Below, piece after piece: positions 18,509 through 61,015 of a stretch of DNA of 64,000 nucleotides (within the stretch, counting starts at the first letter, position 1; the number at the start of each line of letters is the position of its first letter). A model generated the notes under the pieces. It had not been told where the DNA came from, ran no database searches, and saw nothing but the letters and a program-made list of their open reading frames with translations. A program made the position numbers and the translations under genes. This DNA is from Candidatus Woesearchaeota archaeon (GTDB lineage Archaea > Nanobdellota > Nanobdellia > Woesearchaeales > UBA9642): NCBI GenBank assembly GCA_041658255.1, contig JBBAAQ010000001.1:100368-164367 (forward strand). Direction: 5' to 3'.

Positions 18509-18532
18509 ACGATACAGAGAAGGAGTGACGGA

Positions 18533-18580
18533 TATTTAATGTTTGTGGTTTAATTCATGATGTATTCGGAAGATTTACGG
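18533..18580 (-). promoter_or_regulatory. conserved upstream motif, copy A (upstream of the relA-like gene)
   Basis: minus sense TCCGTAAATCTTCCGAATAC..GAATTAAACCACAAACATTAAATAT; shared with copies at 18993..19043 and 20411..20467. Confidence 0.5.
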
Positions 18581-18981: not shown

Positions 18982-18992
18982 TAAATCTACAG

Positions 18993-19043
18993 ATATTTAA
19001 TGTTTGTGGTTCAATCCATCAAGAATCCGGAAGATTTCCGATG
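18993..19043 (-). promoter_or_regulatory. conserved upstream motif, copy B (upstream of the PNPOx-like gene)
   Basis: minus sense TCGGAAATCTTCCGGATTCTTGATGGATTGAACCACAAACATTAAATAT, about 12 nt upstream of the ATG. Confidence 0.5.
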
Positions 19044-20410: not shown

Positions 20411-20467
20411 CGCATTTTACATTTACGTTGTTTTATTCAACCCATCAAGAATCCGGAAGATTTCCGA
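20411..20467 (-). promoter_or_regulatory. conserved upstream motif, copy C (upstream of the Fic gene)
   Basis: contains GGAAATCTTCCGGATTCTTGATGGGTTGAA on the minus sense, plus a degenerate copy of the TAAAT-rich part. Confidence 0.45.
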
Positions 20468-31340: not shown

Positions 31341-31637
31341 TTATTTCTTATACACATTCTCAAGCCACCAATCCTTGACAACAGATAATGTCAGTGTCGA
31401 GAGCATGAATCCTGCAGTCGGAACAAGCGCATTAAGCCATGGGTTCGGGATATTGATAATCATAAGAAAGATGACGATAATAATATAGGTAAGAACAGCG
31501 ATGATTGCTCTGCGAGTAATGCTCGTTTCCCAAGCCTTATCTGCCTCGACCCTCTTGTTTCGTTCCTTGATTGCATTGATTTCCTTTTCCATGGATCTCT
31601 CTAGATATATAGTGATATATAATCTTTTTGATTTCAT
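31341..31637 (-). CDS. small two-TM membrane protein
   Basis: 98 aa; charged N-terminal helix then two hydrophobic segments. Confidence 0.4.
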   Translation of the reverse strand: MKSKRLYITIYLERSMEKEINAIKERNKRVEADKAWETSITRRAIIAVLTYIIIVIFLMIINIPNPWLNALVPTAGFMLSTLTLSVVKDWWLENVYKK

Positions 31638-32111
31638 TTGGAGTTTTTCGAATAATTCGCTTCGCGTTCAGCATCGCTCGCATTTTTATTGTTTTAATGA
31701 GAGAAATTCTTGCCATTTGCATGTCAGAAATTGAAAATTTCTGATCACGATCAAAAATTCATTTTTGACGATTCTGCAAGAATTTCTGAATGTAATGCAT
31801 GTAGATGCTCGCACATTGATGTCATAAAAATTTCCTAAATTTTTAGGACGCCAAAATTTACAATTTTGAGCGCTGGACCATTTATTCGAAAAACTCTTTC
31901 ATTTGGGCTCTGTAGAATTTCTCACTTCGTTCGTAGTCGCCATTCGCATTCTTAATGTTTTTTGAAGAAAATGTTTACCATTTGGAATTCTATAAACATT
32001 TTTAGAATGATATTTTGAAGATGCTCATCTTAAGGCGACTAACATTTTCTATAGGGCCTTTCATTTAAGAATATTTATTAATGCAGGACTATTTGTGATA
32101 CTAAAGGGTGT

Positions 32112-35100
32112 TTGGTGAAACAGCAGATATATACAAAGAGGGGGTTATTGTTGACTCGCAGATTAATGTCGCATATACAGATACGTATTGCATTAACATT
32201 TTTACTCTGCATATTAGGTGTTTTTACAGTAGCTGCACAATCGTCAACCCTTAAGACTGCACTTAGTGCTAATACGAGTACAGAACCAATGGCAGTCATT
32301 GTCGTCATTGAAAAGCCTCAACCGATTGTCGGAGTGCAATCGTCACTTATGAAATCTGCTTCCCGCGCACGTGCAGCAGTAGCGACACCTGTTTCTGAAA
32401 CACCTACACGCATCATTGATTCATTGGGTAAAGAGTTGACGCTCCACACAGAATATTCTATCATTAATGGATTTTCAGGAACAATTACTGCGAACGGAAT
32501 TGCAGAATTAGAAAAGCTCAAAAAATCCGGTACCCGTCTCACGATTTATCCTGATACGGTGTTTTATCTGCAGGCAATCCGCGATCCCAGGCCAATACTC
32601 GCACTGAATGTAAGTACCAATGCAATCCGTGCAAATGAAGCGAGAAACACGTATAATGTTTCTGGACGCAATATTACTGTTGCAGTTATTGATTCGGGAA
32701 TAGATTATACACATCCCGCCTTAGGAAATTGTACAATGATGGGAAGTAATTGTCGTGTCCGTGACGGTTACAATTTTGTAAATAATACGGCAACCCCTAT
32801 TGATGATAATGGTCACGGAACCCATGTTGCAGGAATCATTGGTGCAAATGATTCGACTACATCATTTATCGGAATTGCTCCTGATGTCAATTTTTATGCA
32901 TTAAAAGTCTGCAATGCTGCAGGAGAATGTGCAACATCTGCGATGATTAATGCACTGCAATGGGCAATAGACCATAATGCAGATGTTATCAGCATGTCCA
33001 TTGGTGCATCATATTCTTATGATCCTTTAGGGAATAGTGGTCTTGATGTCATATCGCGCGCAGTTAACGCTGCAATTGCTGCCGGAATACCTGTTGTTAT
33101 TGCTGCAGGAAATGATGGTTTGGGGATAGGAACAATTGCAGTTCCTGCAGCAGCACGTGACGTAATTACTGTTGGCGGCATTGATGATCATAATACGGTA
33201 GCGACGAGTGATGATAGTATCGCAGATTTTAGTTCTGGTCCTTCAGCATTTGGACGATTCGATCCAGAACTTGTCGCGCCAAGCGTCGGTATTATCAGTA
33301 CTGTCCCAACAGGTTCTTGCGTTAATTGCGCCCCCGGTAGGTATCTTGGACTTACTGGAACAAGTATGGCCGCCCCCCATGTTACAGGAGTTGTTGCGCT
33401 CCTGCGTGAAAAGAATCCTTCACTAAGCCCGGGAATTATTCGGGGATTGTTGATGCATGCTGCACGCTCAATCACCGGCAGCGTCTATGATAAGGGTACA
33501 GGGGTTGTTGATGCACTAACAATATTTGAACCCCGAATAATTATCAGTGTCCAAAACGAGAATACTGTCGGATCTATAGTATCAACAGATCGTGCAGAAT
33601 TACTCCTTATTCCTAACCGATCAGTATCGTTTAATCTCGCTCTTGATGCAACAACTGTGCAATCTATAGGACTCAATTATACATTCAATATCACACTGGA
33701 TGATTTAGTCGCATTCGATACAGGGGCAATACTTAATGCATCAGTATGCGCTATTCCATTAGAAGCGAGTATTCTTGTTTCGAGCAGTACTACTCTTAAT
33801 ATCTCGTGCATATTTACAAATACGTCCGCTGTATACGCATCAACATATGCAGGAATACTCCACCTTAATGGTACAGGACATAATAGTAGTGTGACTATTC
33901 CAATGCAGTATGCAATTCCTATTGTTATTACTATACCATTCCAATACACCGTTAATGTTTCACGACAATTACTGCATAGTGGATCAACAAGTGGTGGAGC
34001 TTATTATTCTACAGGTGATGTATTTACTTACGCATATTATAATCCTAAATCAGGTAATGAGACCATACGTATTAATTGGACTAATCCTACTGATGATATT
34101 GATTTATATGTATACAATGCTTCAGGCAATATTGATGTCTATGCAGGATGGGCTGCGGGATTACCCTATGAGTATGTTGAAAGCAATACTACAACATCAA
34201 TAAAATGGATCCGCATCAATGGGTATGAGTTTGCAACAGCTCCCTTATCATTTACACTTACGGTAACTGATAATAATAATCGTGCACCGAATAATTTAGT
34301 CATCACGAATCAGACTGGTGGCACAATGCTTTATTTCTTAAATGGAACAAATATCACCATTCTTATCAATGCCACAGATCCGGACAATGACACGCTCATA
34401 TTTTCCTGCAATGATACTGCGTATGCATTACAAGACAGCGGACCGGCGTATGCACGTTATACGCGTTATGCAAACAATACGCTTATCGGCAATCATTCAA
34501 TTACCTGCACTGCAACTGATCCTTACGGTCTTTCTATAAGTACAAACGCAACAATAACTGTCACAAATAATTCGTTGATCATCACACAAGTAACTCCTAC
34601 GCCAGGAGAGTATTCCATCCTCAAAAATAGTTCGCTCATCCTAAATTATACTGCTATTAACCTTGAAGGGAATGCACTGAATTCGTCATGGTATGTTGAT
34701 ACAGAACTCGTTGCAACTAATACTTCAATATTTACATTTGAGGGAGCAAATTGGACAGTCGGAACGCACATCGTTACTGTCAATATCACAAATAATCATT
34801 CGACAGCATCTTATGAATGGAGTGTTGCTATCAATCAAACATTTTTGTCAGTAAATTATTTACGAAAACAAGTAATCCTTATAGGAATTGATGGAGCACA
34901 ATTTGCAGCATTCAATAGGCTCTATACACAGGGAAATCTTACCAATATGATGCGGCTTATTGCAACTGACGGTTGGATGGGTACTGCACAGATCACCGGC
35001 CATACCGCAACAGAGACTGCACCGGGAAATGCAGAATTGCATACAGGACTTAATGAAACATATACAACAATTTCAAATAATTGGTATGTTCCGGAAAATA

Positions 35101-36980
35101 CAAGATCTATCCCGAACGGACTCACAACGTTTGAACGATTAAAAGCATACAATTCCAGCATCAAGACAGGCCTCGTCTACGGAAAACAAACACTCTATAT
35201 TCCTGACGGCATCTTAAGCAATGCAAAACCTGAAGTTGATTTCTGGAGGAATAAGACCACTAATTCCTACTGGACGAATTGGCCGTATAGTGGCGCGTGT
35301 TCATACCCGCAAAATGTTTCTCAGGCTGCAGCAGATTTCATTAATGAGTATTATAATGAATCATTCTACCTCGTAGTCTATTACGGTGTTCCCGATTGCA
35401 CAGGACACGTCTATGGGGATAATTCTACACAGTATGTTGAATCACTTATTGCTGTTGATGATGCGATAGGGATGCTCCTTGATATATTGGAATCTGCAAA
35501 TCTCAGCGGCAATTCCACGAATTCCATAGTAACTCAAATTATTGTATCTGCAGATCATGGATGGAATAGTAATACTACCGGACACGGGGTACGCAATAAT
35601 GATACGACAATATTGCCGTTATTATCCAATAATAATTTCCTCGTACTTGCAAGTGATAATCATACCCGCGCGCAATGCGATATTGCACCGACGATACTTG
35701 ACTATTTTGGTGTTTCTGAAGCTGCATATACTGATATTTTTGATAATAATTGTGAATCATTACGCTACTCGCCGCCAACGATTACCGTTCATGCGCCCAC
35801 AGGAACTTATACGGAGCTGCCGGTACCACTCAATATTTCGCTGAATGAAAAGGGTTCTTGTAATTATTCGATTGATACTGCCAGCGTTGTACTATTGCAA
35901 ACAACAACGAATATATCATTTTATGAATCTGTTGATGATATTGATTCAGGGTCGCATACAGTGATGTTTTCCTGCGTTGACCGTGCAGGAAATAGTGCAA
36001 ATATCAGCGCATCATTTACGTATACGCCTCCGTCCCGTCATAGCAGCGGTGGTGGAGGAAGTGGAGGCGGGGGCAGTAGTATAACAAGCACCATGCCTTC
36101 TATAAATAATACTGTGAATAATACTGTGCGTAATATGTCAATTCCTGCAGATACGCTTATTCGGACAGTAATCGCGAATACTAGTCATTCGTTTACTTCT
36201 GCCGCGTATGTCTTTACGAATGTATCTAAAGAATTTACGATAATTCTTGCGCGTAATGTGACGACGATTAATGAAACTTCACTTACAGGATTGCAGGTAT
36301 TATTTAATGGTACAAAGACTGTTGCCGTTACAGTCTATACGTATAATGATTCTGATTCGCGTGCGATTTCTGAAATAATAACCACTACCAATACGGTGTT
36401 TACTGGAGTGCCCTTTGCAGTATTTGCAATTGATCATCCAGAACTATCAGATGGAGAAATTATTAATGCATCACTCAATTTTAGCATTCCAAAATCTCTT
36501 CTAGAATCGTATACGAGTAATCCTGCAGATGTGCGATTATATCGATTGCAACAATCTGCTGGCAATTCTTCAAATGCGTGGATTGAACTCAAAACCACAC
36601 TCGTATATGCAACAGATACTGCATATTACTATGTCGCTCAATCCCCCGGTCTGAGTATGTTTATTATTGGAACAAGTACGAAACTCGAACTTCCTTCACA
36701 ATCATTAATCCCCCTGCCGAAATCGCGTATAACACCCGTATTTCGCATCCTTAATGACACTAACTATTCTCGTGCGAAGAATGATTCAGTGAATGATTCT
36801 TTGAATACTTCTGCCCGGAAGCCAGCATCCATGCAGGATTTTTGGTCAACAATTATTTCTGTATCTTTCACGCCAGAACAACGCGTATATATATGGATTA
36901 TCAGGATCATTTGTATTACCGGGATATTAGGTATTTCAATCTATTATTGGATACATTTTCGTTCTCCTCGTTGTATATAA
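32112..36980 (+). CDS. secreted subtilisin-like serine protease (S8) with C-terminal Ig/PKD-like regions, an embedded alkaline-phosphatase-superfamily domain, a Gly-rich linker and a C-terminal TM anchor
   Basis: signal peptide; catalytic VIDSGID, HGTHVAG, GTSMAAPHVTG; later LIGIDGAQFAAF, DCTGHVYG, VSADHGW (type-I phosphodiesterase-like); GGGGSGGGGSS; C-terminal hydrophobic IWIIRIICITGILGISIYYWI. Confidence 0.8.
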   Translation: MVKQQIYTKRGLLLTRRLMSHIQIRIALTFLLCILGVFTVAAQSSTLKTALSANTSTEPMAVIVVIEKPQPIVGVQSSLMKSASRARAAVATPVSETPTRIIDSLGKELTLHTEYSIINGFSGTITANGIAELEKLKKSGTRLTIYPDTVFYLQAIRDPRPILALNVSTNAIRANEARNTYNVSGRNITVAVIDSGIDYTHPALGNCTMMGSNCRVRDGYNFVNNTATPIDDNGHGTHVAGIIGANDSTTSFIGIAPDVNFYALKVCNAAGECATSAMINALQWAIDHNADVISMSIGASYSYDPLGNSGLDVISRAVNAAIAAGIPVVIAAGNDGLGIGTIAVPAAARDVITVGGIDDHNTVATSDDSIADFSSGPSAFGRFDPELVAPSVGIISTVPTGSCVNCAPGRYLGLTGTSMAAPHVTGVVALLREKNPSLSPGIIRGLLMHAARSITGSVYDKGTGVVDALTIFEPRIIISVQNENTVGSIVSTDRAELLLIPNRSVSFNLALDATTVQSIGLNYTFNITLDDLVAFDTGAILNASVCAIPLEASILVSSSTTLNISCIFTNTSAVYASTYAGILHLNGTGHNSSVTIPMQYAIPIVITIPFQYTVNVSRQLLHSGSTSGGAYYSTGDVFTYAYYNPKSGNETIRINWTNPTDDIDLYVYNASGNIDVYAGWAAGLPYEYVESNTTTSIKWIRINGYEFATAPLSFTLTVTDNNNRAPNNLVITNQTGGTMLYFLNGTNITILINATDPDNDTLIFSCNDTAYALQDSGPAYARYTRYANNTLIGNHSITCTATDPYGLSISTNATITVTNNSLIITQVTPTPGEYSILKNSSLILNYTAINLEGNALNSSWYVDTELVATNTSIFTFEGANWTVGTHIVTVNITNNHSTASYEWSVAINQTFLSVNYLRKQVILIGIDGAQFAAFNRLYTQGNLTNMMRLIATDGWMGTAQITGHTATETAPGNAELHTGLNETYTTISNNWYVPENTRSIPNGLTTFERLKAYNSSIKTGLVYGKQTLYIPDGILSNAKPEVDFWRNKTTNSYWTNWPYSGACSYPQNVSQAAADFINEYYNESFYLVVYYGVPDCTGHVYGDNSTQYVESLIAVDDAIGMLLDILESANLSGNSTNSIVTQIIVSADHGWNSNTTGHGVRNNDTTILPLLSNNNFLVLASDNHTRAQCDIAPTILDYFGVSEAAYTDIFDNNCESLRYSPPTITVHAPTGTYTELPVPLNISLNEKGSCNYSIDTASVVLLQTTTNISFYESVDDIDSGSHTVMFSCVDRAGNSANISASFTYTPPSRHSSGGGGSGGGGSSITSTMPSINNTVNNTVRNMSIPADTLIRTVIANTSHSFTSAAYVFTNVSKEFTIILARNVTTINETSLTGLQVLFNGTKTVAVTVYTYNDSDSRAISEIITTTNTVFTGVPFAVFAIDHPELSDGEIINASLNFSIPKSLLESYTSNPADVRLYRLQQSAGNSSNAWIELKTTLVYATDTAYYYVAQSPGLSMFIIGTSTKLELPSQSLIPLPKSRITPVFRILNDTNYSRAKNDSVNDSLNTSARKPASMQDFWSTIISVSFTPEQRVYIWIIRIICITGILGISIYYWIHFRSPRCI

Positions 36981-37042
36981 AGTATAGAATACTTTTATAC
37001 AACTTAAAAATTTTTGATTTGCGATAGCAAATTTTTCTTGTA
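36972..37042. repeat. 71-nt direct repeat, copy 1 (contains a hairpin + T-run terminator-like core)
   Basis: tgtatataaagtatagaatacttttatacaacttaaaaatttttgatttgcgatagcaaatttttcttgta; near-identical to 40789..40859 (2 mismatches). Confidence 0.8.
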
Positions 37043-37125
37043 AATAATTTTTCAAGTTTATGTTTTAATTTATATTCCGATTCATATTCTTGCGCATACT
37101 CTTGTGAATACCTTATGATTTCTAC

Positions 37126-38619
37126 TTGTTAGTTAATAACAATTTATATATAGCGTCTAGAATATGTGAAGTCATGTTCGATATCATTGTGGGGCGTAAC
37201 GAAGCAGATAGGGAAAAATTCGGTGATAAAGGCACTGTTTTTATCGGTAAACATTATGTGAAGATGGGGCGGACTACAAGCCTGAGTAATAACATATTTC
37301 TTGATGTCACCCGTGCGCATGTTTTCTTCGTCGTGGGAAAAAGGGGTTCGGGGAAATCGTACACGATGGGCGTCATTGCAGAAGGCATTTCTGACCTCCC
37401 CCCTGAAATCAAGAATAATATTTCAGTCATACTCCTTGATACCATGGGTATCTATTGGACCATGAAGTATCCGAATCAGAAAGATAAAGGACTTCTCAAT
37501 GAATGGGGGCTTTCCGGAAAGGCGCTTGATGTCAAAATTTATACGCCGACTGGTTTTTTTGATGATTTCAGAAAAAAAGGTATCCCGACTGATTATCCTT
37601 TTTCTATTAAACCCTTAGAACTTGACGCCGGAGACTGGTGTATGAGTTTTGGCGTGCAATCAAATAATCCTATTGGTGTCTTAATCGAAAAAATAATTTA
37701 TGCACTTAAAGATCGTCATGAAACGCAGGGAATAGAATATGCGATTACGGATATTGTTGCAATGATCGATCAGGATAAAGAAGCAGACAGTAATACCCGA
37801 AATGCTGCAAAAAACTTATTCTTTAATGCACGCAATTGGGGAATTTTTGAACCAGAACTCACAACTCAAATAGTTTCTTCTACTCTTCAACCTGAAAAAA
37901 AGTCTTCGCTTGACTATAAGAAAAAAACTACTGTTGCAACTCCGATATCGCATCGTGCAACACCACTTTCAGATCTTGCAAAAGGCGGGCAAGTGACTGT
38001 CGTCGATCTTTCCTGCTATGCGACCATGCCGAATTCCTGGAATATTAAGAATCTTGTTGTTGGACTTATCGCAGAAAAATTATTCATCCAACGCATGATT
38101 GCACGTAAAGACGAGGAATATGCACAGATCCACAAATCCATTAATTTATTCGGTGAAGAGCAGACAAAGAAGTTTGAGTTTCCTATGGTATGGCTCGTCA
38201 TTGATGAAGCGCATGAATTCTTGCCGCACGACGGAAAAACACTTGCCACAGATCCACTCGTAACGATTTTACGTGAAGGACGACAGCCGGGAATATCTCT
38301 TATCCTTGCAACCCAGCAGCCCGGAAAAATCCATACTGATGTTATGACCCAATCTGATGTGGTGATTGCGCATCGCATCACGGCAAAACTGGATACAGAA
38401 GCACTCGGTGCATTAATGCAAAGTTATATGCGTGAAGGACTCGTTGAACAACTTGACGATCTTCCGCGCGTCAAAGGCGCTGCAATCATCTTCGATGATA
38501 ATAACGAGAAAATGTATCCGATGCGCTTGCGACCGCGATTGACGTGGCACGGCGGCGAAGACCCATCAGCGCTCCCGAAACAAGACGAGGGGTTTGGCGA
38601 GGATGTGTTTAAACTATGA
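37126..38619 (+). CDS. HerA/FtsK-superfamily (DUF87-like) P-loop ATPase
   Basis: N-terminal IVGR..G..GTVFIGKH; Walker A GKRGSGKS; Walker B VWLVIDEAHEF; ILATQQP, VVIAHRIT. Confidence 0.7.
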   Translation: MLVNNNLYIASRICEVMFDIIVGRNEADREKFGDKGTVFIGKHYVKMGRTTSLSNNIFLDVTRAHVFFVVGKRGSGKSYTMGVIAEGISDLPPEIKNNISVILLDTMGIYWTMKYPNQKDKGLLNEWGLSGKALDVKIYTPTGFFDDFRKKGIPTDYPFSIKPLELDAGDWCMSFGVQSNNPIGVLIEKIIYALKDRHETQGIEYAITDIVAMIDQDKEADSNTRNAAKNLFFNARNWGIFEPELTTQIVSSTLQPEKKSSLDYKKKTTVATPISHRATPLSDLAKGGQVTVVDLSCYATMPNSWNIKNLVVGLIAEKLFIQRMIARKDEEYAQIHKSINLFGEEQTKKFEFPMVWLVIDEAHEFLPHDGKTLATDPLVTILREGRQPGISLILATQQPGKIHTDVMTQSDVVIAHRITAKLDTEALGALMQSYMREGLVEQLDDLPRVKGAAIIFDDNNEKMYPMRLRPRLTWHGGEDPSALPKQDEGFGEDVFKL

Positions 38620-39020
38620 ATGCAATGACTCTACCACTCTCTCGAAAAAAAACAATAACGTTATTGAATGCATTTATCGCGGATGTATTGCCGAAAAAGC
38701 AGTGGTTTTTATCATGTAAACCATTTATGAATGCGGCAGTATTTTATGGTTCTCGTGCGAAAAACAATCACCGTGCTGACTCTGATATTGATATACTGAT
38801 ATTTATGCCGCTTGCGGTAGAGAAGAAATATACTCGAGGGGAATATGTGTATAATTATTACGGACATCATATTAATATTGTTATCCGATCTATTGAACGG
38901 TTAAGAAGAATTGCTGCATTTAGAGAAAAGGATTTATTCGAAGCAGAAATATTCCGTATGGCTGAGATTATTTGGCAGAAAGATACCGAAGTTGCACAAT
39001 TAATAAAAAAAATAATTTAG
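38616..39020 (+). CDS. minimal nucleotidyltransferase (MNT, Pol-beta superfamily) translationally coupled to the upstream ATPase
   Basis: VFYGSRAKNNHRADSDIDILIF (G[SG]x9-13Dx[DE] NTase motif); ATGA overlap with the ATPase gene. Confidence 0.7.
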   Translation: MNAMTLPLSRKKTITLLNAFIADVLPKKQWFLSCKPFMNAAVFYGSRAKNNHRADSDIDILIFMPLAVEKKYTRGEYVYNYYGHHINIVIRSIERLRRIAAFREKDLFEAEIFRMAEIIWQKDTEVAQLIKKII

Positions 39021-39027
39021 ACCGACT

Positions 39028-39267
39028 TTACTTTTTCTTCCATAACTTCTTATCAATCTTTTCATGGACTGCAAGTTCTTCCTGGAATTCTTTCTTTGTG
39101 AAATCTGCGTGCGTCATGCTGATGATTGACGAGATGAACATGATGACAAAGAAGAGTGCGAATGTGAATCCCCAGGTCTCTGAGAGTTTCATCACAAAAT
39201 AGACTGAGACGAAAAATCCGATGATACTGGTCAACATAAATCCTGCGCTTAGATGTGCATACTTCAT
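39028..39267 (-). CDS. small two-TM membrane protein
   Basis: 79 aa; two hydrophobic helices, K-rich C-terminus. Confidence 0.4.
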   Translation of the reverse strand: MKYAHLSAGFMLTSIIGFFVSVYFVMKLSETWGFTFALFFVIMFISSIISMTHADFTKKEFQEELAVHEKIDKKLWKKK

Positions 39268-39322
39268 TTTACTTCACCTCTTTTTTCTTCTGGCTGTTCG
39301 TATTTAAATAGTTATTGAATGA

Positions 39323-39481
39323 GACGGGGTTGTCGGAAAATAGTTTTAGCATCTCAAGGTGAGTGTTCTCTACAGCAGTTCCAGAAAGTGTTGCAGAATT
39401 GCAAATGGCAACATTTTCCATAAAATTAACAAAACAAACACGAGCGATGCTAAAAACGAAGCTTATTTTCCGACAACCCCG
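39323..39481. ncRNA. ~160-nt element with a ~30-bp near-perfect stem (candidate structured ncRNA or MITE-like element)
   Basis: gacggggttgtcggaaaatagttttagcatc (39323..39353) pairs with gatgctaaaaac-gaagct-tattttccgacaaccccg (39446..39481); locally GC-richer than the surroundings. Confidence 0.4.
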
Positions 39482-39564
39482 AAAGGGACCGCGGTATTTT
39501 TTCAAAGAAACGAATTGATGAATAAAAGAATAAACTATTAAAAGCACGATTCGTTGAGATAAGT

Positions 39565-40110
39565 GTGAATTCCAAAAAAATAGGATTATATCGGTTCAGT
39601 CCCATAAAAAATATTTCTCAATTATTGGAAGCTATAAAGCACACGCATTTTTCTTGTCATACACTCTGTAAACACACATTTGGGAGATATCTTCCTAATG
39701 CGGGGAATATCGGTATTTTTTGCCACTACGAAAAAGAATACAATCAGCTTATCCAAATGAGAAAAAAACTTACAGAACCTTCTAGCAATCCAAATCAAAA
39801 ATATTTTAAATTATATAAACCCATTATTATCAAGGCGAAAGGGGATGTCCCGCAAACAATCTATACACATCTGTATATACGTAAACCGGATATTTACCGA
39901 TCCCAGGTCGGTGATGTCGATTTCTTCTTAGCGCCAAAAGAATATCTTAAAATAAAAAAATCATTAATCGAAGGGGCGAATATTAAAGATGGAAGAATAT
40001 TTCCCCGTCAGGATCTTGACATGATTGAGTTATACCATCCTGATATTGATGCACTCGCATACGTAAGTACGAAAATGATGACTGAAACAGTACGGGTGAA
40101 ACAGAATTAA
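39565..40110 (+). CDS. hypothetical protein
   Basis: 181-aa ORF. Confidence 0.4.
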   Translation: MNSKKIGLYRFSPIKNISQLLEAIKHTHFSCHTLCKHTFGRYLPNAGNIGIFCHYEKEYNQLIQMRKKLTEPSSNPNQKYFKLYKPIIIKAKGDVPQTIYTHLYIRKPDIYRSQVGDVDFFLAPKEYLKIKKSLIEGANIKDGRIFPRQDLDMIELYHPDIDALAYVSTKMMTETVRVKQN

Positions 40111-40178
40111 ATTTCTTGTATAACGCCTTATGGAAAGGGAAAACTTTTTATACAATGCCCGCTCGTAGATGTTGAGAG

Positions 40179-40778
40179 GTGGTTGTCATGAAGTTTACAG
40201 TTATGTCAATAATGATTATTATTCTTGTAGGTGGTCTTGTACTGGTGGTCGGTTGTAAAACCACTAAAACAGGAACAACAGTCATTCCTGTCGATACAGA
40301 AAAAACATATGGAGAATTATACCGATTCAGTGATGTAAGTACATATTCCTATCGTTTAACGACGAAACTTGCAGATGGTGATGTAAATACGACTGTAGAA
40401 TCGAGTGTAAAATCTGAAACGCTCTATGGAGCATCCGTATGGGTCCAAGATTCGACATCAAATGGCGTAACGACGCGTATTTGGCTTGATGCGACAAAAT
40501 TTTCCTGCCTCAAAATGGCGTTTATTCAAAGGGTGCAAGATACTGACCGTCTTACCTCTGTTTCATGTCCACTCGAGAATTCTGCGCAAGCATCTGCTGT
40601 TGCAGTCAAATATATCTACGCAGGTTCAGAAAAGGTTACTGTACCACTCGGGACATTTGATGCACTAAAATATGCGAGTGCAGACTCCACGTATTGGTAT
40701 GTTACAACAATTCCAGTCCCGGTAAAAGCAGTCTCGAATTATGGCGTAACGATTATGGAATTAGCGTCGTATTCATAA
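40179..40778 (+). CDS. secreted/lipoprotein-like hypothetical protein
   Basis: N-terminal signal with LVVGCKT lipobox-like segment; T/S-rich. Confidence 0.45.
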   Translation: MVVMKFTVMSIMIIILVGGLVLVVGCKTTKTGTTVIPVDTEKTYGELYRFSDVSTYSYRLTTKLADGDVNTTVESSVKSETLYGASVWVQDSTSNGVTTRIWLDATKFSCLKMAFIQRVQDTDRLTSVSCPLENSAQASAVAVKYIYAGSEKVTVPLGTFDALKYASADSTYWYVTTIPVPVKAVSNYGVTIMELASYS

Positions 40779-40788
40779 TTTTTTTTAT

Positions 40789-40859
40789 TGTATATAAAGT
40801 ATAGAATACTCTTATACAGCTTAAAAATTTTTGATTTGCGATAGCAAATTTTTCTTGTA
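40789..40859. repeat. 71-nt direct repeat, copy 2
   Basis: tgtatataaagtatagaatactcttatacagcttaaaaatttttgatttgcgatagcaaatttttcttgta. Confidence 0.8.
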
Positions 40860-40927
40860 TTTTTCTTTTTTTCATCAACTCTTTATCTTTTACGAAACTT
40901 TTTAAACACAGATAAAATCACAATACG

Positions 40928-41701
40928 ATGGGGATTTTTCAACTACTCATCGACTATGTACTCCACTTAGATCGTTATGTGAGTCAACTCATCGAATATT
41001 TTGGCCCGTGGACTTATGTTGTAGTATTCTTGATTATTTTTCTTGAGACAGGTTTAGTATTGACGCCCTTCCTACCGGGTGATTCACTCATTTTTGCACT
41101 CGGCGCATTTGCCGCAATCGGTTCACTCAATATCTGGCTCCTCTTCATCCTCTTATCACTCGCGGCAATACTCGGCGATACCATGAATTATTGGATTGGG
41201 CACTATCTCGGTCGAAAAATTTTGAGAGCAAGACCGCAATTCATGAAAAGATATGAGATTGATATTCGCGGGATAAAAAGAGATTCTCATGTAGTAATAC
41301 GTCTCCGGTATTTTATGAATATACGAAATGTGATTATTCGTAGCATGATTTATAGAATATATAAGCATATTATCAATGCAAAGAATATTTCTATAACGAA
41401 AAAATTCTTTATCAAACACGGTGGAAAGACCATTATCCTTGCGCGATTCATCCCCATTATTCGAACATTTGCCCCGTTCCTTGCGGGCATTGGAAAAATG
41501 GATTACTGGAAATTCTTTATGTATAATGTGGTTGGAGGAATCGTGTGGGTCGGACTATTCTTATGGGTGGGATACTTTTTCGGAAACATTTCTTGGGTTC
41601 AAGAAAATTTTTCAATCGTCATCATTATTATCATGGCGACCTCACTTATCCCTGTCATCACTGCAATCATCACGAACTTGAGGGATAAACGTAAAAAATG
41701 A
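40928..41701 (+). CDS. DedA/SNARE-associated family membrane protein with a ~55-aa basic insertion
   Basis: FLETGLVLTPFLPGDSLIFALGAFA and RFIPIIRTFAPFLAGIGKM are typical DedA motifs; I/R/K-rich segment between them. Confidence 0.7.
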   Translation: MGIFQLLIDYVLHLDRYVSQLIEYFGPWTYVVVFLIIFLETGLVLTPFLPGDSLIFALGAFAAIGSLNIWLLFILLSLAAILGDTMNYWIGHYLGRKILRARPQFMKRYEIDIRGIKRDSHVVIRLRYFMNIRNVIIRSMIYRIYKHIINAKNISITKKFFIKHGGKTIILARFIPIIRTFAPFLAGIGKMDYWKFFMYNVVGGIVWVGLFLWVGYFFGNISWVQENFSIVIIIIMATSLIPVITAIITNLRDKRKK

Positions 41702-42693
41702 AACACACCATATCAATAACTGTTATTTTGCTTTCATTTTTTGTCCTCGCACAAGTATTCGGACTCTTCCTTATTATGAAGGATGCGCAGGTGAATACTG
41801 CGATTGAAGGGAATACGACAATTATTACTGTTGCGCATGATGATACTGCAGTCGGTGCCCGTCCTGATACCACGGGCGCAGAAAGTTTAATCTATGTAGT
41901 CATCGGAGTGATTATCGGGACATTACTCGTATTACTCCTCGCGAGATTTGGAAAAACAGGTCTTTGGAAGATATGGTATTTTATTGCTGTCTGGATTGCA
42001 AGTGCGATTGCCCTTGGTGTACTCATCAAATATAACTTATTTTTTTCATATGGCCTCGCGATTGGACTTGCACTCGCATTGACTATCTGGAAGGTGTTTT
42101 GGCCGAATGTATTTATCCATAATATTACTGAAGTCTTAGTCTATTCAGGAATCGCATTACTCATTGTTCCACTCTTCACAGTGTTGTGGGCGATCATCTT
42201 ATTACTCATTATCTCACTCTATGATATGTATGCAGTCTGGAAATCAAAACACATGATTACCATGGCAAAATTTCAGACAAAATCTAATGTGTTTGCAGGA
42301 CTGATGATTCCTTATAGGAGAAAATCAGAATCAAAAAATACATCTTCATCAAAAATGAGGGATAGTAAAACCACTGCATCTTCATCAGGATTGAAATCCA
42401 TGAAATTGCCGCACCTTGCAAAGAGTGCAAAAGAATCAACTCTACAAATGGCAATCCTCGGTGGTGGAGATATTGCGTTCCCACTTATTTTTACTGGTGC
42501 GGTGTTTGAAGGCATGCTGCGATTAGGACTCACAAAACCTACAGCATTTATGCATTCATCAATCATTATTCTGACAACAACGATTGCACTCGGACTATTA
42601 TTCTTCTATGCAAAGAAAGGAAAATTCTATCCCGCAATGCCATTTGTCAGTGCAGGATGCTTGATCGGATGGGCGATAACGCTGCTGCTGTAA
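41698..42693 (+). CDS. presenilin/signal-peptide-peptidase-like intramembrane aspartyl protease (A22 family)
   Basis: LISLYDMYAVW (YD motif) and LGGGDIAFPLIF (GxGD motif), multiple TM helices; ATGA overlap with the DedA gene. Confidence 0.7.
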   Translation: MKHTISITVILLSFFVLAQVFGLFLIMKDAQVNTAIEGNTTIITVAHDDTAVGARPDTTGAESLIYVVIGVIIGTLLVLLLARFGKTGLWKIWYFIAVWIASAIALGVLIKYNLFFSYGLAIGLALALTIWKVFWPNVFIHNITEVLVYSGIALLIVPLFTVLWAIILLLIISLYDMYAVWKSKHMITMAKFQTKSNVFAGLMIPYRRKSESKNTSSSKMRDSKTTASSSGLKSMKLPHLAKSAKESTLQMAILGGGDIAFPLIFTGAVFEGMLRLGLTKPTAFMHSSIIILTTTIALGLLFFYAKKGKFYPAMPFVSAGCLIGWAITLLL

Positions 42694-42734
42694 AAAGCGG
42701 TAACATTTATTAAGAATGCGTTCTTTTTTATATC

Positions 42735-43355
42735 ATGAGTACAGATAAATTAATTATCAACTATCTTAAAAATAATTGCCTCTACGAAATGAGTAAAGAG
42801 CAACAATTAATCTCGATTGTTAATCTTATTGCAAAAATTCCTTGGGGCGAGGCAAGAACTCCTGAAACAGTTTTGCAGAAGGGAAAAGGGACATGTCAGG
42901 GAAAACATCTTTTATTGCAAGCATGTCTTGATGAATTACGCATTAAATATAAGCCGGTTGTTTGCACGTTCTATTATAGTGAACAAGGATTAAAATTACC
43001 ACCAAATTTGATTAAGATTATTAAAGAGGGCGAATGGATTCATGGACATAACTTCTTAAAAATCCAAAATTTCGAAGGCAAATTTGTCGACATCGATATT
43101 ACGTGGAACAGAGAATTAAAACCGTATGGTTTTCTTTGTTCTCCGGTGAATTGGGACGGTAAGAAACCGATTATTGGAATGAAAAAAATAGTAAAAAGAT
43201 GGGATGGCATTAATGTTGAAAAAATCAAATCCGAAATTATTAATTCTTTAAATCCAGAACTCAAAGAGCGAAGACACCGATTCGTAAAAGAACTGGTGGC
43301 GTGGGTTGAAGGGATTAATAAGGAATTGATTAAATCGTCAAAACTTTCTTCTTAG
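42735..43355 (+). CDS. transglutaminase-like cysteine protease superfamily protein
   Basis: putative Cys-His-Asp core: GKGTCQGKHLLL, HGHNFLKI, FVDIDITWN. Confidence 0.5.
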   Translation: MSTDKLIINYLKNNCLYEMSKEQQLISIVNLIAKIPWGEARTPETVLQKGKGTCQGKHLLLQACLDELRIKYKPVVCTFYYSEQGLKLPPNLIKIIKEGEWIHGHNFLKIQNFEGKFVDIDITWNRELKPYGFLCSPVNWDGKKPIIGMKKIVKRWDGINVEKIKSEIINSLNPELKERRHRFVKELVAWVEGINKELIKSSKLSS

Positions 43356-44935: not shown

Positions 44936-45436
44936 GTGAAAGGTCTTTCAAAAAAGGAAGTTGAAATTATTGCGCATCTCGAATTTGAGCAAACGTATTT
45001 CTTTACACGAGAGACCATCAAACAATTCTTCGAAACGCCACAGCACATTTCTGACTTCATATTTGGGCTGAGAACAAAAGGTCGGGTTATCAAGATAAAC
45101 CGCGAAAAATATTATCTTATACCAATAAAATCGCGTAGTGGAGGATGGTCAGAACATCCTTTTATTCTTGCAGATGAGATATGTGATGGCAAAGATTATG
45201 TTATCGGCGGATGGGCGGCAGCAAAATATTGGAAACTTACAGAACAAATACCTGCGCAGATAGATGTATATACTACAAAGAGACAAGGCACTTATAATAT
45301 AATGAATATGCGGTTTGTGTTTCACCGGACAACTGTTCGAAAAATACGTAGTGGAGTCAAGAAAGCGATAGAACAACATCCCTTCGCAATTATTTCAAAA
45401 GACGAGGCTAAACAATGGTACAGACAGAGAAAGTAG
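44936..45436 (+). CDS. AbiEi-like antitoxin / transcriptional regulator (putative)
   Basis: 166 aa; overlaps the start of an AbiEii-like NTase gene, as in type IV AbiE TA loci. Confidence 0.5.
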   Translation: MKGLSKKEVEIIAHLEFEQTYFFTRETIKQFFETPQHISDFIFGLRTKGRVIKINREKYYLIPIKSRSGGWSEHPFILADEICDGKDYVIGGWAAAKYWKLTEQIPAQIDVYTTKRQGTYNIMNMRFVFHRTTVRKIRSGVKKAIEQHPFAIISKDEAKQWYRQRK

Positions 45437-45846
45437 ACAAACAATTTATTGCAGACTTAGTCGGAAAAACTTCATTTAACGAGACGCTTCTCGCTAAGGA
45501 TTATTATATCACAAGAATACTCTATCTTTTAAAAGATATAAAGGGAATATATTTCAAAGGCGGAACAGCGCTTCAGAAAATATTTCTCAACCATTCACGA
45601 ATAAGTGAGGACATAGACTTTACACTAAAAAAATCAGTCTCAGAAATTAGGAAGGAGATAACGCAGATAATACATTCATCAAAATTATTTGGGACGAATC
45701 CGTTTAATCCCTTGTATTGCGGCATTTCTGATTTCGGGGTCCGCACTTACCGGACATATTTTTGGATAGTGTGGTCCGTGAGTAAGAAGATATTTACTGT
45801 TTTTCTTCATATTCCGACCAATCGACATGCCACATATAATTGCTAA
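45415..45846 (+). pseudogene. AbiEii-like nucleotidyltransferase toxin, 3'-truncated (only ~90 aa of the NTase N-terminus is intact)
   Basis: YFKGGTALQKIFLNHSRISEDIDF is the AbiEii/DUF1814 signature; the reading frame then degenerates where a minus-strand transposase remnant begins. Confidence 0.55.
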
Positions 45847-51892: not shown

Positions 51893-52013
51893 CATGAGTG
51901 CAGTATTCATAGCAATGATTGCTGTTAAAGTCAATAATGTGTTTTTGAGTTTACTCATACTTTCTCTAGGATGTTACTATTTATAAAGTTTACTGAAGTT
52001 ACCACTAGAAAGG
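51893..52013. repeat. 121-nt duplicate of the promoter plus signal-peptide 5' end of the gene at 52744..54204, copy 1 (encodes a 25-aa remnant MSKLKNTLLTLTAIIAMNTALMKLL on the minus strand)
   Basis: ~85% identical to 54139..54259. Confidence 0.7.
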
Positions 52014-52743: not shown

Positions 52744-54204
52744 TTACGGATTATACTTATCTCTCATCACTTGTTCTAGACTTTTATTGCTTAGTGCAGT
52801 GTATGTTGTTCCGTCATGTCTGGTGAGTATGATCATTGTTGCATTTCCGCTTGTTTTTCCGAGATAATTTTGCCAACTCGGTGCGATTTCCATTTGTTTA
52901 GTTGAGTCCCACTTTGTGTTTGGCGGATTCATGAAATGTGCTTGTAACATTGTGATATCGATTGGATTTTTGAAATCTTTACCAAGGTTTCCTACTGCCG
53001 AGTTGAATAGTCCATTATAGTCTGGATCGTCGTTTCTTCCGAAGTATGTTTCTCCTGTCATTACTTCTTTGGTTAATGAAACATCCATAGCATATAACCC
53101 GAATGTTAAATTCTCGCTTTTGAGATATGCTTGATCGTATACTGTTGCTGCTCTGTTTATTATTCCTGTTGTTGTGTTGAAGTCTACTACTGTTGCCGCT
53201 GCAAATCCTCCTGCGTCTCCAAATCCTATTTGGTGCATTCCGTTCGGCGTGTTTGGATATTCTTGTCCTGTTTCGAATTTTTTGTTTTTGAAATACGTTG
53301 TGTCGAGATTGTTTATTTTAGCGTTTTGGATGAGTGTTGCTTTTTGTTTGTATATTTCGTAGAATTGTTTTTGTACAGCATTGAGTGTATCGACTACAAA
53401 ATGTGCTGTTAATGGCTTGAGAGTTCTTACATTACCTTTTTGTGTAGGGTCCATCTTGCTTAGTTTATTATACTTTTCCATCACACTCGCAGGCATGTTT
53501 GTTTTGTCTTTTATGTATTGATCTATTGTTGTATCCTGACTGGTAGAGAATGTTGTTTGCCATCCCCAGATGTTTTGTCCTTCGATAGTCATTGTGTATT
53601 CTGTTCTTCCTGTTGTTTTTCCTAGTCGTTGTTGTTCTGTTCTCGCGTTTATTTGTTCTTGTAATGCGCGTTCTAGTGTTTGTGGGTTTTCGCGATGTAC
53701 TATTGATGTTTTTCCTGCTTTGAATTTTCCTTCTTGTTCTATAGTATATGGATATATCCCGCTGCTTACACGCGCTCCTGCATCATTTTTTTTATCCCAG
53801 TAGAGTCGGTGTCTTCCTGCGCTTTGTTCTGCATTGTAGAGTTCGCGTATTTTTTGTCCGAGTATATTGAATACTGTGATTTTTGTTTTTGCTGTTTTTG
53901 GTAGTGCGTATTCTATTGTTCCTTCTGCTGCTATTGTTTCTATTCCTGTTATTGTTTCAGTATTTTCTTTATCTTTTATTCCTGTTACGAGTAGATTATA
54001 TCGCCCTTGGTTATCTGTTCTTGTCGTCTGTGTATTAATAGGATTATTTTTTTCCGCAATAGTCACAGTCACGTAGCTTGCAGGTTTCTTGTCGAATATT
54101 GATTTGATTGTTCCATTAATATTTCTATAAGATTGTGCCATGAGCGCAGTATTCATAGCAAGAATTGCCGTCAAAATCAATAATGTATTCTTGAGTTTAC
54201 CCAT
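52744..54204 (-). CDS. secreted protein with an N-proximal FlgD-Ig/T9SS-sorting-domain-like beta-sandwich
   Basis: signal peptide; KITVFNILGQKIRELYNAEQSAGRHRLYWDKKNDAGARVSSGIYPYTIEQEGKFKAGKTSIV. Confidence 0.5.
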   Translation of the reverse strand: MGKLKNTLLILTAILAMNTALMAQSYRNINGTIKSIFDKKPASYVTVTIAEKNNPINTQTTRTDNQGRYNLLVTGIKDKENTETITGIETIAAEGTIEYALPKTAKTKITVFNILGQKIRELYNAEQSAGRHRLYWDKKNDAGARVSSGIYPYTIEQEGKFKAGKTSIVHRENPQTLERALQEQINARTEQQRLGKTTGRTEYTMTIEGQNIWGWQTTFSTSQDTTIDQYIKDKTNMPASVMEKYNKLSKMDPTQKGNVRTLKPLTAHFVVDTLNAVQKQFYEIYKQKATLIQNAKINNLDTTYFKNKKFETGQEYPNTPNGMHQIGFGDAGGFAAATVVDFNTTTGIINRAATVYDQAYLKSENLTFGLYAMDVSLTKEVMTGETYFGRNDDPDYNGLFNSAVGNLGKDFKNPIDITMLQAHFMNPPNTKWDSTKQMEIAPSWQNYLGKTSGNATMIILTRHDGTTYTALSNKSLEQVMRDKYNP

Positions 54205-54259
54205 ACTTTCTCTAGGATGTTACTATTTATAAAGTTTACGGTTGTTACCACTAAAAAGG
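54139..54259. repeat. 121-nt repeat, copy 2 (native promoter/5' end of the 52744..54204 gene)
   Basis: aligned to 51893..52013. Confidence 0.7.
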
Positions 54260-60616: not shown

Positions 60617-61015
60617 GTGCCTGAATTCGAGGTAACACTTATGGACAAAACAAATTATGCATTAATCTTGATTGTAGGAATTGTTGCAGTTGTCGGTATT
60701 GTTGCGATGATTGTGGCAACATCCTCATCAAATACTGAAGTATCTTCGAGCATCACGGGTAATGTTGTTGATGTCCCAAAAATTACTACACCAACAATGG
60801 CACAAGTCCAGTGTACTGATGGTAATGATGATACGACTGATGGTTGTGTGAATTATATGAACGCGCGATGCGGGGACGGATATCTCTACGCCGGTGTCGA
60901 ACAATGTGAGACAACAACACTGCAGGGACAATCGTGCCAGAGTTTCGGATATGCGGGCGGAGCATTGAGATGCACACAAGATTGTGTCTTTGATACGAGC
61001 GAATGTTATAATTAG
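60617..61015 (+). CDS. small membrane-anchored Cys-rich protein (CGDG-type Cys-rich repeat)
   Basis: N-terminal TM; RCGDGYLYAGVEQCE..QSCQSFGYAGGALRCTQDC. Confidence 0.5.
   Translation: MPEFEVTLMDKTNYALILIVGIVAVVGIVAMIVATSSSNTEVSSSITGNVVDVPKITTPTMAQVQCTDGNDDTTDGCVNYMNARCGDGYLYAGVEQCETTTLQGQSCQSFGYAGGALRCTQDCVFDTSECYN

Follow-up and report, generated by a model that had tools for sequence, protein, structure and literature searches.

The stretch of DNA analysed here, 64,000 nt from a Woesearchaeota contig and referred to as the window, contains two nearly identical direct repeats enclosing five genes, one of them for a HerA-like ATPase. What these repeats are, borders of a cassette delivered by insertion or recombination or something more ordinary, was the question raised by the first-pass annotation. 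A repeat search of the window defined two copies of 72 nt, 36971-37042 and 40788-40859, with 70 of the 72 residues identical (97%, two mismatches) and a spacing of 3817 nt. When up to three mismatches were allowed, each half of the repeat matched the window only at these two places, and no matches were obtained in 100 shuffles. The near-identical repeats of about 71 nt were therefore described correctly, as was their position at the ends of two genes for secreted proteins. Copy 1 (36971..37041, + strand), which is of the consensus type, overlaps the end of the subtilisin open reading frame, to which it contributes two final sense codons plus the stop codon (TGT ATA TAA; stop at 36978-36980). 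Copy 2 (40788..40858, + strand), a variant with T24C and A32G, begins 9 nt past the stop codon of a lipoprotein-like open reading frame of 196 aa and is directly preceded by T8A. Strain 1 has copy 1 and strain 2 does not, whereas copy 2 is found in both strains.

The gene upstream of copy 1 specifies a secreted subtilisin of 1621 aa (32115..36980, + strand; Peptidase_S8 and Phosphodiest domains), which is lineage-specific and absent at the corresponding position in the relative L006. Between the copies, the five genes listed previously were all found: a HerA/FtsK-superfamily ATPase of 481 aa (DUF87; 37174..38619, + strand), a minimal nucleotidyltransferase (MNT) of 134 aa (NTP_transf_2/Polbeta; 38616..39020, + strand) overlapping the HerA stop by 4 nt, a small membrane protein of 79 aa (39028..39267, - strand), a protein of 181 aa without assigned function (39565..40110, + strand), and the lipoprotein-like protein of 196 aa with a signal peptide followed by Cys (40188..40778, + strand). 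Copy 2 is followed by genes for a DedA/VTT-domain membrane protein (40928..41701, + strand) and a presenilin-type SPP (41698-42693). More than 5,700 homologues of the HerA-like protein were detected, 62-80% identical among the best 120, and those with names are mostly from Woesearchaeota or DPANN; judged by these homologues, it is a highly conserved Woesearchaeota gene. It occupies a syntenic position in relatives and has the 79-aa gene as neighbour there (68-81% aa identity). The lipoprotein has a syntenic homologue in L006 (37% aa identity), the DedA-SPP pair is conserved in relatives, and the HerA-like, 79-aa, lipoprotein, DedA, and SPP genes are collinear in the relative with a HerA 80% identical. 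L006 and L010 share the order of the backbone genes. The MNT and 181-aa genes are lineage-specific. No homologue of the latter was found in the relatives' loci, and no MNT gene adjoins HerA in any of the three loci examined from relatives (L006, L009, L010), so that the proposed pairing of HerA-like ATPase and MNT is not conserved. A conserved partner nuclease or effector of the NurA, Sir2, or DUF4297 type, as expected of a HerA-based defence or repair system, is not located beside HerA, the sole conserved neighbour being the 79-aa membrane protein, and PADLOC returned only generic HerA matches confined to the ATPase half.

The first-pass annotation had suggested searching for further copies of the 71-mer, which as a border specific to a cassette should not be found elsewhere. 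A 23-mer from the right-hand hairpin of the repeat revealed six more copies on four JGI contigs of the same archaeal population (matching, at 99.96-100% identity, contigs of the ENA assembly that contains the window's contig), and at least six other loci thus carry the unit. The flanks of these six copies are unrelated to the window. Every copy is intergenic, both orientations relative to neighbouring genes occur, and one copy lies in a ribosomal-protein operon between the genes for L32e and L19e. At five of the eight sites one end of the unit overlaps a stop codon or is at most 20 nt away from one, and some copies are found directly upstream of gene starts. Locus L013 harbors a direct pair of units 2.3 kb apart, flanking three unknown genes. 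Divergent or partial copies were not detected in the window or in the relatives' loci (nhmmer --max, blastn-short), and either half of the unit gave no match in 185,579 species genomes (GTDB) or in IMG/VR. Rfam 15 yielded no match to 36800-41000 at E ≤ 1, the only match in the window at the gathering threshold being the SRP RNA. In the literature searched, no description of repeats of this kind in Woesearchaeota was found.

Alignment of the eight copies revealed a unit of about 71 nt, TTGTATATAAAGTATAGAATACTTTTATACAACTTAAAAATTTTTGATTTGCGATAGCAAATTTTTCTTGT, over which all copies are 97-100% identical. They share the sharp boundaries TTGTATA...CTTGT, and similarity ends abruptly on both sides. 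The left end is formed by a hairpin that had been missed previously, a 14-bp stem with one bulge at unit positions 1-32 (hairpin 1; in copy 1 TTGTATA[T]AAAGTAT-AGA-ATACTTTTATACAA, 36971..37002, from RNA and DNA folds). The hairpin noted before, ATTTGC-GATA-GCAAAT followed by a T-run, is indeed present (hairpin 2; in copy 1, with the T5 after it, at 37017..37036 on the + strand, from sequence and folds); its 6-bp stem ends 8-9 nt from the right end of the unit. Just upstream of it, an A5T5 tract (37006-37015) provides a T5 run on either strand. Both hairpins also fold as single-stranded DNA (z = -5.1 and -5.2), and folding is better than that of shuffled sequences on both strands. Terminal inverted repeats (TIRs) are absent, since the ends TTGTATATAAA... 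and ...TTTTTCTTGT are not complementary, and flanking direct repeats indicative of target-site duplication were not seen at any of the eight copies. The five nucleotides preceding TGTATA... are TTTAT in four copies and TTTTT, GTTTT, TTTGT, and CTCGT in the others, T-rich but not fixed. T8A, perhaps itself a part of the element, precedes the unit in four of eight copies, and the unit usually lies immediately on the 3' side of a tract rich in T or in pyrimidines.

Strain 2, whose contigs are 98-99.7% identical, offers an empty site. It has the subtilisin, HerA-like, and MNT genes, and copy 1 is missing. The alignment of its contig L005 to the window (99.7%) stops at position 36971 and resumes at 37037; the junction reads ...CTCCTCGTAAATAA..., and exactly 70 nt are missing (window 36970/72-37039/41). 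The ambiguity of the junction is 2 nt (GT), the sole homology there. Target-site duplications, another mark of insertion proposed for inspection, are not apparent when the filled site in the window is compared with the empty one in L005, and the pyrimidine tract preceding copy 1 is already contained in the empty site. The three other copies that could be checked are all present in strain 2; the polymorphism was seen at one site only and, without an outgroup, represents either an insertion or a precise loss. In the closest of the relatives compared (aa identity of HerA 80% and 76%), the subtilisin-HerA junction is lacking.

With these data, two explanations of the repeats can be judged. That they were made or misplaced by the assembler is practically negligible as a possibility. 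Logan contigs break at both copies, but unitigs built with k = 31 are expected to end exactly there if a true repeat is longer than k. The repeat was recovered in two independent megahit assemblies and a JGI assembly, the arrangement is shared by the independent ENA and JGI assemblies, and copy 2 is found in the second strain as well. Moreover, the final k-mer of megahit was apparently longer than the 71 nt of the repeat (k = 141, judging by contig names containing 'k141_'), so that contigs spanning the repeat rest on reads. The repeat is genuine. Very unlikely, too, is the view that the repeats are recombination scars, att-like sites or ends of a composite transposon, left by a 3.8-kb cassette with the HerA-like and MNT genes. 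The direct orientation of two copies around five genes, the lineage-specific MNT and 181-aa genes, and the similar pair around three genes in L013 would be in line with it. Yet strain 2 contains HerA and MNT without the left repeat, the HerA, 79-aa, lipoprotein, and DedA-SPP genes are collinear in relatives, the HerA-like gene is conserved among Woesearchaeota, at least eight copies of the unit exist nearby or elsewhere, and no integrase or transposase was found in or beside the segment. The presence/absence pattern expected of a cassette was accordingly not found for the backbone genes between the repeats. Both observations named in the first-pass annotation as refuting a cassette, dispersal of the 71-mer and synteny in relatives, have thus been made. 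Judged by gene order, these are ordinary, long-resident chromosomal genes and not a delivered cassette. A false lead is thereby removed: there is no mobile HerA/MNT cassette in the window, and catalogues should not list the HerA-like and MNT genes as a two-gene system. Direct pairs such as that in L013 could still allow homologous recombination between copies to delete or move segments in future.

It appears likely that the two repeats are copies of a non-coding, transposase-free mobile element of about 70 nt in one population of Woesearchaeota (DPANN). Such a unit would land in intergenic DNA without duplicating its target, and its movement would depend on an enzyme supplied in trans from another locus, perhaps a transposase of the IS200/IS605 type, acting on single strands and recognising hairpins, as for the PATEs of haloarchaea. 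The copies in the window would then flank the genes from HerA to the lipoprotein through chance or local hopping. Neither the window nor other loci of the population totalling about 65 kb yielded a transposase of any kind. No TnpA or TnpB was found, nor a sequence link to the ends of any IS200/IS605 element. Integrase, recombinase, or transposase domains were not found in or beside the bounded segment in Pfam scans, which covered all open reading frames in 32112-43355, other window open reading frames of at least 90 aa outside 28,997-51,000, and the Pfam hits of called genes inside that range.

PATEs are transposase-free derivatives of IS200/IS605 elements that have no TIRs, near-terminal palindromes, no target duplication, and are too short for a transposase, and the 52-bp versions seem able to move (Dyall-Smith et al. 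2011, PMC3119063). The unit likewise has no TIRs, palindromes at or near both ends, no duplication, and is too short for a protein, and it resembles PATEs in being present in multiple, highly similar copies with strain-specific presence. Elements of the IS200/IS605 family excise without a scar and insert without duplication (PMC10055086), and the scarless presence/absence of the unit fits this peel-and-paste chemistry. Unlike PATEs, the unit has no sequence link to any IS200/IS605 end found, its host is a DPANN archaeon, and its 5' flank, which is T-rich (TTTAT in four of eight), does not clearly show a strictly conserved target of 4-6 nt. Hairpin 1 starts at the left boundary itself, unlike the canonical left end of IS200/IS605 elements, where, in IS608, about 19 nt separate the cleavage site from the hairpin. 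The distance between cleavage site and hairpin exceeds, at the 5' end, that at the 3' end (PMC3119063). The SMRs of Haloquadratum, about 80-110 bp without transposase or target duplication and with an unknown mode of mobilisation (PMC3119063), are of a similar size class and share these properties with the unit, but they possess TIRs, which the unit does not. A Woesearchaea genome is reported to be dense in classical MITEs, elements with TIRs and target-site duplications (PMC11602168). The unit is like them small, non-coding, intergenic, and multi-copy, but has neither of their two hallmarks. Short hairpin-forming intergenic repeats are also known from bacteria, the Correia elements of Neisseria and the REP/BIME sequences with RAYT transposases, which can provide the genes beside them with promoters or terminators. 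The REPs, single palindromes of about 20-40 nt with a GTAG-type head, depend for their movement on Y1 (HUH) transposases and have neither TIRs nor target-site duplications; Correia elements have TIRs and duplicate TA. The unit is alike in being a hairpin-forming intergenic repeat, but domain of life and promoter type differ.

The copy at locus L014 holds a nested, hairpin-rich insert of 68 nt at the foot of hairpin 1, of which no further copies were found. It recalls the SMR-A elements, which insert into PATE palindromes (PMC3119063).

Transcription signals are contained in the unit as well. A TATA-box-like octamer at 36974..36981 matches the consensus on both strands, reading TATATAAA on the + and TTTATATA on the - strand. 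Of 60 called genes, 10 have the promoter box of this genome, T[TA]T[TA]TA[TA]A, with its end 19-25 nt from the start codon, compared to 0.33 expected. One of the ten is the 214-aa gene at L021/L015, for which the sole box in the 80 nt scanned is TTTATATA of the element, ending at the canonical distance of 23 nt upstream. At the same spot in a relative, a methyltransferase gene is located directly upstream of the homologue of the 214-aa gene; a remnant of it was not found beside the L015/L021 copy. Two other neighbours have their start codons 32 nt and 54-55 nt from the element's box (with a GAGGT ribosome-binding site). No gene faces the box-bearing end of copies 1 and 2. The genes downstream of these copies have boxes of their own outside the element, TTTATATA at 37143..37150 (+ strand) for the HerA-like gene, ending 23 nt before the ATG, and TTTTTAAA at 40899..40906 (+ strand) for DedA, ending 21 nt before the ATG; hence no function is needed to explain copies 1 and 2. 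Oligo-T suffices for termination in archaea, and the T5 tracts of the unit provide a run of at least five T on the sense strand downstream of a gene, a putative terminator. Hairpin 2 contains too few G-C pairs for the unit to be picked up by a scan for bacterial-type terminators, which is uninformative for an archaeon. Since the TATA box TTTATATA in the left arm faces outward (- strand) and the central T5 tracts are present on both strands, each copy is predicted from these motifs to be probably a portable terminator with an outward promoter. The earlier idea of a duplicated terminator module holds insofar as a repeated intergenic module with oligo-T and hairpins is present, near stop codons at five of eight sites; occurrence in both orientations and upstream of gene starts, and the nature of a discrete insertable unit, do not agree with it. 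A more far-reaching proposal appears doubtful as a whole: the unit would be a mobile DPANN terminator with outward promoter that inserts by oligo-T without TIRs or duplication and has rewired loci, by breaking the ribosomal-protein operon apart between the L32e and L19e genes and by becoming the source of the only promoter box of a gene whose upstream partner in the operon was lost, and the mover would be a very compact IS200/IS605-like system or an undescribed enzyme.

The same signals could be taken to mean that the unit is a native regulatory module, either a bidirectional oligo-T terminator with a TATA box or a transcription-factor palindrome, which is not transposable, was spread by illegitimate recombination or gene conversion, and was kept as useful. 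The consensus box and T5 tracts on both strands, the exclusively intergenic location, often within 20 nt of a stop or start codon, and the lack of a transposase in the loci scanned would suit such a module. Still, we regard it as unlikely: the eight copies are 97-100% identical and lose similarity abruptly at both ends, they occur in both orientations, the strains differ by a precise 70 nt with just 2 nt of junction homology, both genes downstream of a copy in the window own separate promoters, and a second, classical MITE family in the genome shows active transposition. Quite improbable, more so than the native module, are dispersed genes for small RNAs. Transcription would start about 22 nt downstream of TATATAAA on the + strand and end at the T5 after hairpin 2, yielding a hairpin RNA of about 30 nt, or antisense transcripts would run outward from the - box. 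Box, hairpin, and T5 are in the required arrangement and folding is better than in shuffled sequences on both strands, but such an RNA would be very short and rich in A and U, a match to Rfam at E ≤ 1 is lacking, the few substitutions provide no covariation, and the lack of either half in 185,579 species genomes or IMG/VR argues against a conserved RNA. The indel behaviour would be unexplained, though compatible with a transcribed mobile element.

Some further candidates were rejected. The ends of hairpin 1 (GTTGTAT / ATACAAC) do not fit by eye the R'/R'' cores of integron attC sites, GTTRRRY / RYYYAAC, and neither an array nor IntI is present. A template/variable repeat pair of a DGR is not supported, with no reverse transcriptase, mismatches that are not adenine-specific, and at least eight copies. 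SINE-like retroposition, suggested by A8 after the unit on the minus strand in four copies, is unlikely, as there is no duplication and the pyrimidine tract pre-exists at copy 1. Genes for OapB/OapC near the L015 copy brought ORB repeats of replication origins into consideration, but a G-string is missing from the unit, and one of its scattered copies lies in the ribosomal-protein operon.

As a mobile element, the unit would be a new sequence family of an already known kind, with ordinary biology. A family of miniature, probably mobile repeats without TIRs and duplication is now documented in Woesearchaeota, absent from Rfam, GTDB species genomes, and IMG/VR, and MITE finders based on TIRs would probably miss it. 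Such repeats may carry promoters and terminators around very small genomes; if this reading of the signals is true, the unit illustrates, in compact and natural form, how archaeal transcription signals can be portable. Repeats of this kind also fragment metagenome assemblies and can create spurious open reading frames and altered gene ends.

An unrelated classical MITE (family 2, 155 nt) is located between the two copies at 39326..39480. It has perfect terminal inverted repeats of 17 nt (GGGGTTGTCGGAAAATA) and is flanked by imperfect direct repeats of 9 nt. An open reading frame of 92 aa (39269-39547, - strand) is probably spurious because it overlies this MITE. Contigs of two assemblers are broken at the 71-nt element or at the neighbouring MITE.

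The two near-identical direct repeats described in the first-pass annotation were recovered by a repeat search. They are 72 nt long (36971-37042 and 40788-40859), identical at 70 of 72 bases and spaced by 3817 nt. Searching with each half of the unit and allowing up to three mismatches yielded nothing in the window beyond both copies, and 100 shuffled sequences gave no match to the halves. Copy 2 starts 9 nt past the stop of the ORF for a 196-aa lipoprotein-like protein. Copy 1 reaches into the 1621-aa subtilisin ORF, whose terminal codons, TGT ATA TAA, are provided by the first bases of the copy.

The hairpin ATTTGC-GATA-GCAAAT with its T5 run is present in the unit, as noticed before. A larger hairpin, TTGTATA[T]AAAGTAT-AGA-ATACTTTTATACAA, opens the unit with a 14-bp stem containing one bulged T; a hairpin is located at or near each end. 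Since the tract between the hairpins is A5T5, a T5 run is found on either strand. Folding of both strands as single-stranded DNA was far better than that of shuffled sequences (z = -5.1 and -5.2). Neither terminal inverted repeats (TIRs) nor a target duplication were found in the unit.

The window has a G+C content of about 38%, and the closest homologues of its proteins are from metagenome-assembled genomes named Candidatus Woesearchaeota, a DPANN lineage. An SRP RNA of the archaeal type (Rfam RF01857, 62047-62320 on the plus strand, 116.5 bits) fixes the domain of the organism. Two strains could be compared: strain 1, ENA contig ERZ27247322:k141_392514, is 100% identical over window positions 28,616-51,701, and strain 2 is a population in a second sample, ERZ27249422, 98-99.7% identical to strain 1. 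With an exact 23-mer from the second hairpin, six further copies of the unit were detected on four contigs of the JGI metagenome Ga0265292, so the repeat is not specific to the supposed cassette. Besides the unit, these loci have only short stretches of a MITE family in common with the window. Other contigs of the ENA assembly containing the window contig match them at 99.96-100% identity, which assigns these loci to the same genome population.

Alignment of eight copies revealed 97-100% identity over the same approximately 71 nt, TTGTATATAAAG...TTTTTCTTGT, and an abrupt loss of similarity at both ends. Two of the loci harbor variants, L012 with a 12-nt insertion and an altered right tip, and L014 with a nested insert of 68 nt that forms three hairpins and is placed precisely at the foot of hairpin 1 on its 3' side. 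The insert (L014 6581-6648) is flanked on both sides by ACA(G/A) and may represent another tiny mobile repeat targeting the palindrome; a second copy of it was not found among the loci examined. All copies of the unit are intergenic, in either orientation relative to the neighbouring genes, and one is located between the L32e and L19e genes within a large ribosomal-protein operon. Neither half of the unit was found in 185,579 prokaryotic species, represented by one genome each, or in IMG/VR, and the family therefore appears to be restricted to this lineage.

Copy 1 is absent from strain 2. A contig of this strain, L005, contains the subtilisin 3' end and the HerA-like and MNT genes, aligns with the window up to 36971 and picks up again at 37037, with the junction sequence ...TTCTCCTCGTAAATAATT... 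Exactly 70 nt are missing, and this gap agrees with the family boundaries to within one base. The subtilisin C-terminus reads ...SPRK* at the empty and ...SPRCI* at the filled site. The target-site duplication for which a check had been proposed was not seen when both sites were compared, the sole ambiguity being 2 nt (GT). The contig names suggest that the ENA assemblies were finished at k = 141, exceeding the size of the unit; if so, reads must support the empty junction. Copy 2, the ribosomal-protein copy and the copy in L015, another unit-containing locus, are all present in strain 2. The 70-nt unit thus behaves as a discrete movable piece, whether it was gained in strain 1 or precisely lost in strain 2.

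A T-rich 5' flank precedes seven of the eight copies and is T8A in four of them. The five nucleotides preceding TGTATA are TTTAT in four copies and TTTTT, GTTTT, TTTGT and CTCGT in the others. Copy 1 lies behind a pyrimidine tract, TTCTCCTCG; because the empty site has this tract as well, a target preference is more likely than a contribution of the tract to the unit.

Strain identity to L005 steps from 99.7% (35748-36971) to 97.9% (37037-39223) across the copy 1 site, a possible sign of a recombination boundary close to the element. A second strain-level difference in gene content near the copies is found downstream of SPP, the presenilin-type gene following DedA, where strain 2 has a 243-aa methyltransferase (L020 2962-3693) and the window a 188-aa protein (42789-43355).

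The repeats had originally been suspected to mark the delivery of a 3.8-kb cassette carrying a HerA-like ATPase and MNT, a nucleotidyltransferase, as a pair. The HerA-like protein has more than 5,700 homologues, the best 120 of which are 62-80% identical, and those named among these 120 are mostly from Woesearchaeota, Nanoarchaeota, DPANN or an "archaeon"; to solved HerA structures it is only distantly related, via the ATPase core. Among the relatives examined, the closest HerA (80% amino acid identity) is encoded in locus L006 in the order ABC transporter, GATase, 83-aa gene, HerA, 79-aa gene (minus strand), 196-aa lipoprotein, DedA and SPP. The same order is found in the window, and the arrangement HerA...DedA-SPP is also kept in the relative's locus L010. 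The subtilisin upstream, MNT right after HerA and the gene for the 181-aa protein are specific to the lineage in the window. Beside HerA, the relatives examined have the 79-aa membrane protein and not MNT; HerA-like and MNT are not a conserved pair there. MNT looks like a lineage-specific gene that came in between HerA and the 79-aa gene conserved next to it. Its gene (38616-39020, plus strand) overlaps the HerA-like stop codon by 4 nt, and no HEPN partner is evident. Integrase or transposase domains were detected neither in the window ORFs scanned nor in the precomputed Pfam hits of the called genes. With dispersed copies, collinear relatives and no such domains, both points on which the first-pass annotation had made its reading depend went against it, and the cassette interpretation is refuted.

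Its fallback, a duplicated terminator module, is partly right given T5 on both strands, but does not account for occurrence in both orientations or for a discrete movable unit of 70 nt. The unit does not qualify as a classical MITE, since TIRs and a target-site duplication are both absent. Of the other candidates weighed, attC sites, DGR repeats and origin repeats were discarded, and retroposition was judged unlikely. No Rfam family was matched. Haloarchaeal PATEs are described as lacking TIRs, having near-terminal palindromes, making no target duplication and being too short for a transposase (PMC3119063). All four descriptions apply to the unit, which on this comparison may be called PATE-like, and terminal-only PATEs of 52 bp are apparently mobile (PMC3119063). 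The scarless presence and absence fits the peel-and-paste transposition of IS200/IS605 elements (PMC10055086). Membership of the PATEs in the strict sense is no more than possible: TnpA, TnpB or a matching IS end were not found in approximately 130 kb of this genome, the left hairpin abuts the boundary, and no single short word serves as the target. Taken together, it is rather probable that the unit is a small mobile repeat without a transposase, PATE-like in architecture and belonging to a new sequence family, and that two of its copies happen to flank resident genes. In a census of TIR-type MITEs, their density in one Woesearchaea genome was among the highest in archaea (PMC11602168); TIR-based methods would probably miss the unit.

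In 10 of 60 called genes of this population (0.33 expected), the octamer T[TA]T[TA]TA[TA]A comes to an end 19-25 nt upstream of the start codon, a spacing that is the signature of leaderless archaeal promoters. The HerA-like gene and DedA each have a box of this kind that is not part of the element, TTTATATA (37143-37150) and TTTTTAAA (40899-40906). The left arm of the unit also contains the octamer, TATATAAA on the plus and TTTATATA on the minus strand. Facing outward, the minus-strand box stops 23 nt short of the ATG of a 214-aa gene (L015, shared by ENA contig L021), where it is the only box in the 80 nt scanned upstream. A relative's homologue of this gene (74% amino acid identity) directly follows a methyltransferase gene, which is absent here. 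The minus-strand box ends 32 nt before a gene in L013 and 54-55 nt before L19e, both of which have a GAGGT ribosome-binding site. A reasonable reading is that the unit could serve as a portable terminator and outward promoter. Its value would be higher if promoter or terminator activity, or an unusual mechanism of mobilisation, were demonstrated.

The second repeat family, unrelated to the unit, is a classical MITE of 154-155 nt. The window copy (39326-39480) has 155 nt and perfect 17-nt TIRs, GGGGTTGTCGGAAAATA; a partial inverted copy is located at 31637-31721, and L015 contains two (1588-1741 and 10167-10320). Flanking 9-nt direct repeats match at 9/9 positions in both L015 copies and at 7/9 in the window, and compensatory changes between copies are found in the central hairpin. 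The MITE was unmatched in Rfam. Because it underlies the 92-aa ORF at 39269-39547 (minus strand), this ORF is probably spurious. The ENA contigs L005, L021 and L022 end at or near MITE copies.

Several other genes and repeats were observed in the window. Long RSH enzymes are unusual in archaea, and the full-length RelA/SpoT-type protein encoded at 16538-18505 (minus strand), with HD_4, RelA_SpoT, TGS and ACT domains (E about 2e-44 each for HD_4 and RelA_SpoT), would on that basis suggest horizontal acquisition by this DPANN archaeon. Genes likely to be of the toxin-antitoxin or defence type are dispersed over the window: two encode Fic/DOC-domain proteins (19073-20359 and 61012-61920, both minus strand), and one, which follows a 166-aa ORF, is an AbiEii-type nucleotidyltransferase toxin gene (45415-45843, plus strand). 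A large repetitive surface protein is probably encoded at 54327-60527 (plus strand): its 2067 aa contain MopE-type metal-binding motifs (Pfam Cu-binding_MopE), and its gene has many internal DNA repeats (families D1-D3, D6, D9 and D16). A 52-nt direct-repeat family is present in three copies (18528-18579, 18989-19040 and 20415-20466; 62-85% identity to the reference), and a pair of 121-nt direct repeats (51893-52013 and 54139-54259) shows 89% identity.
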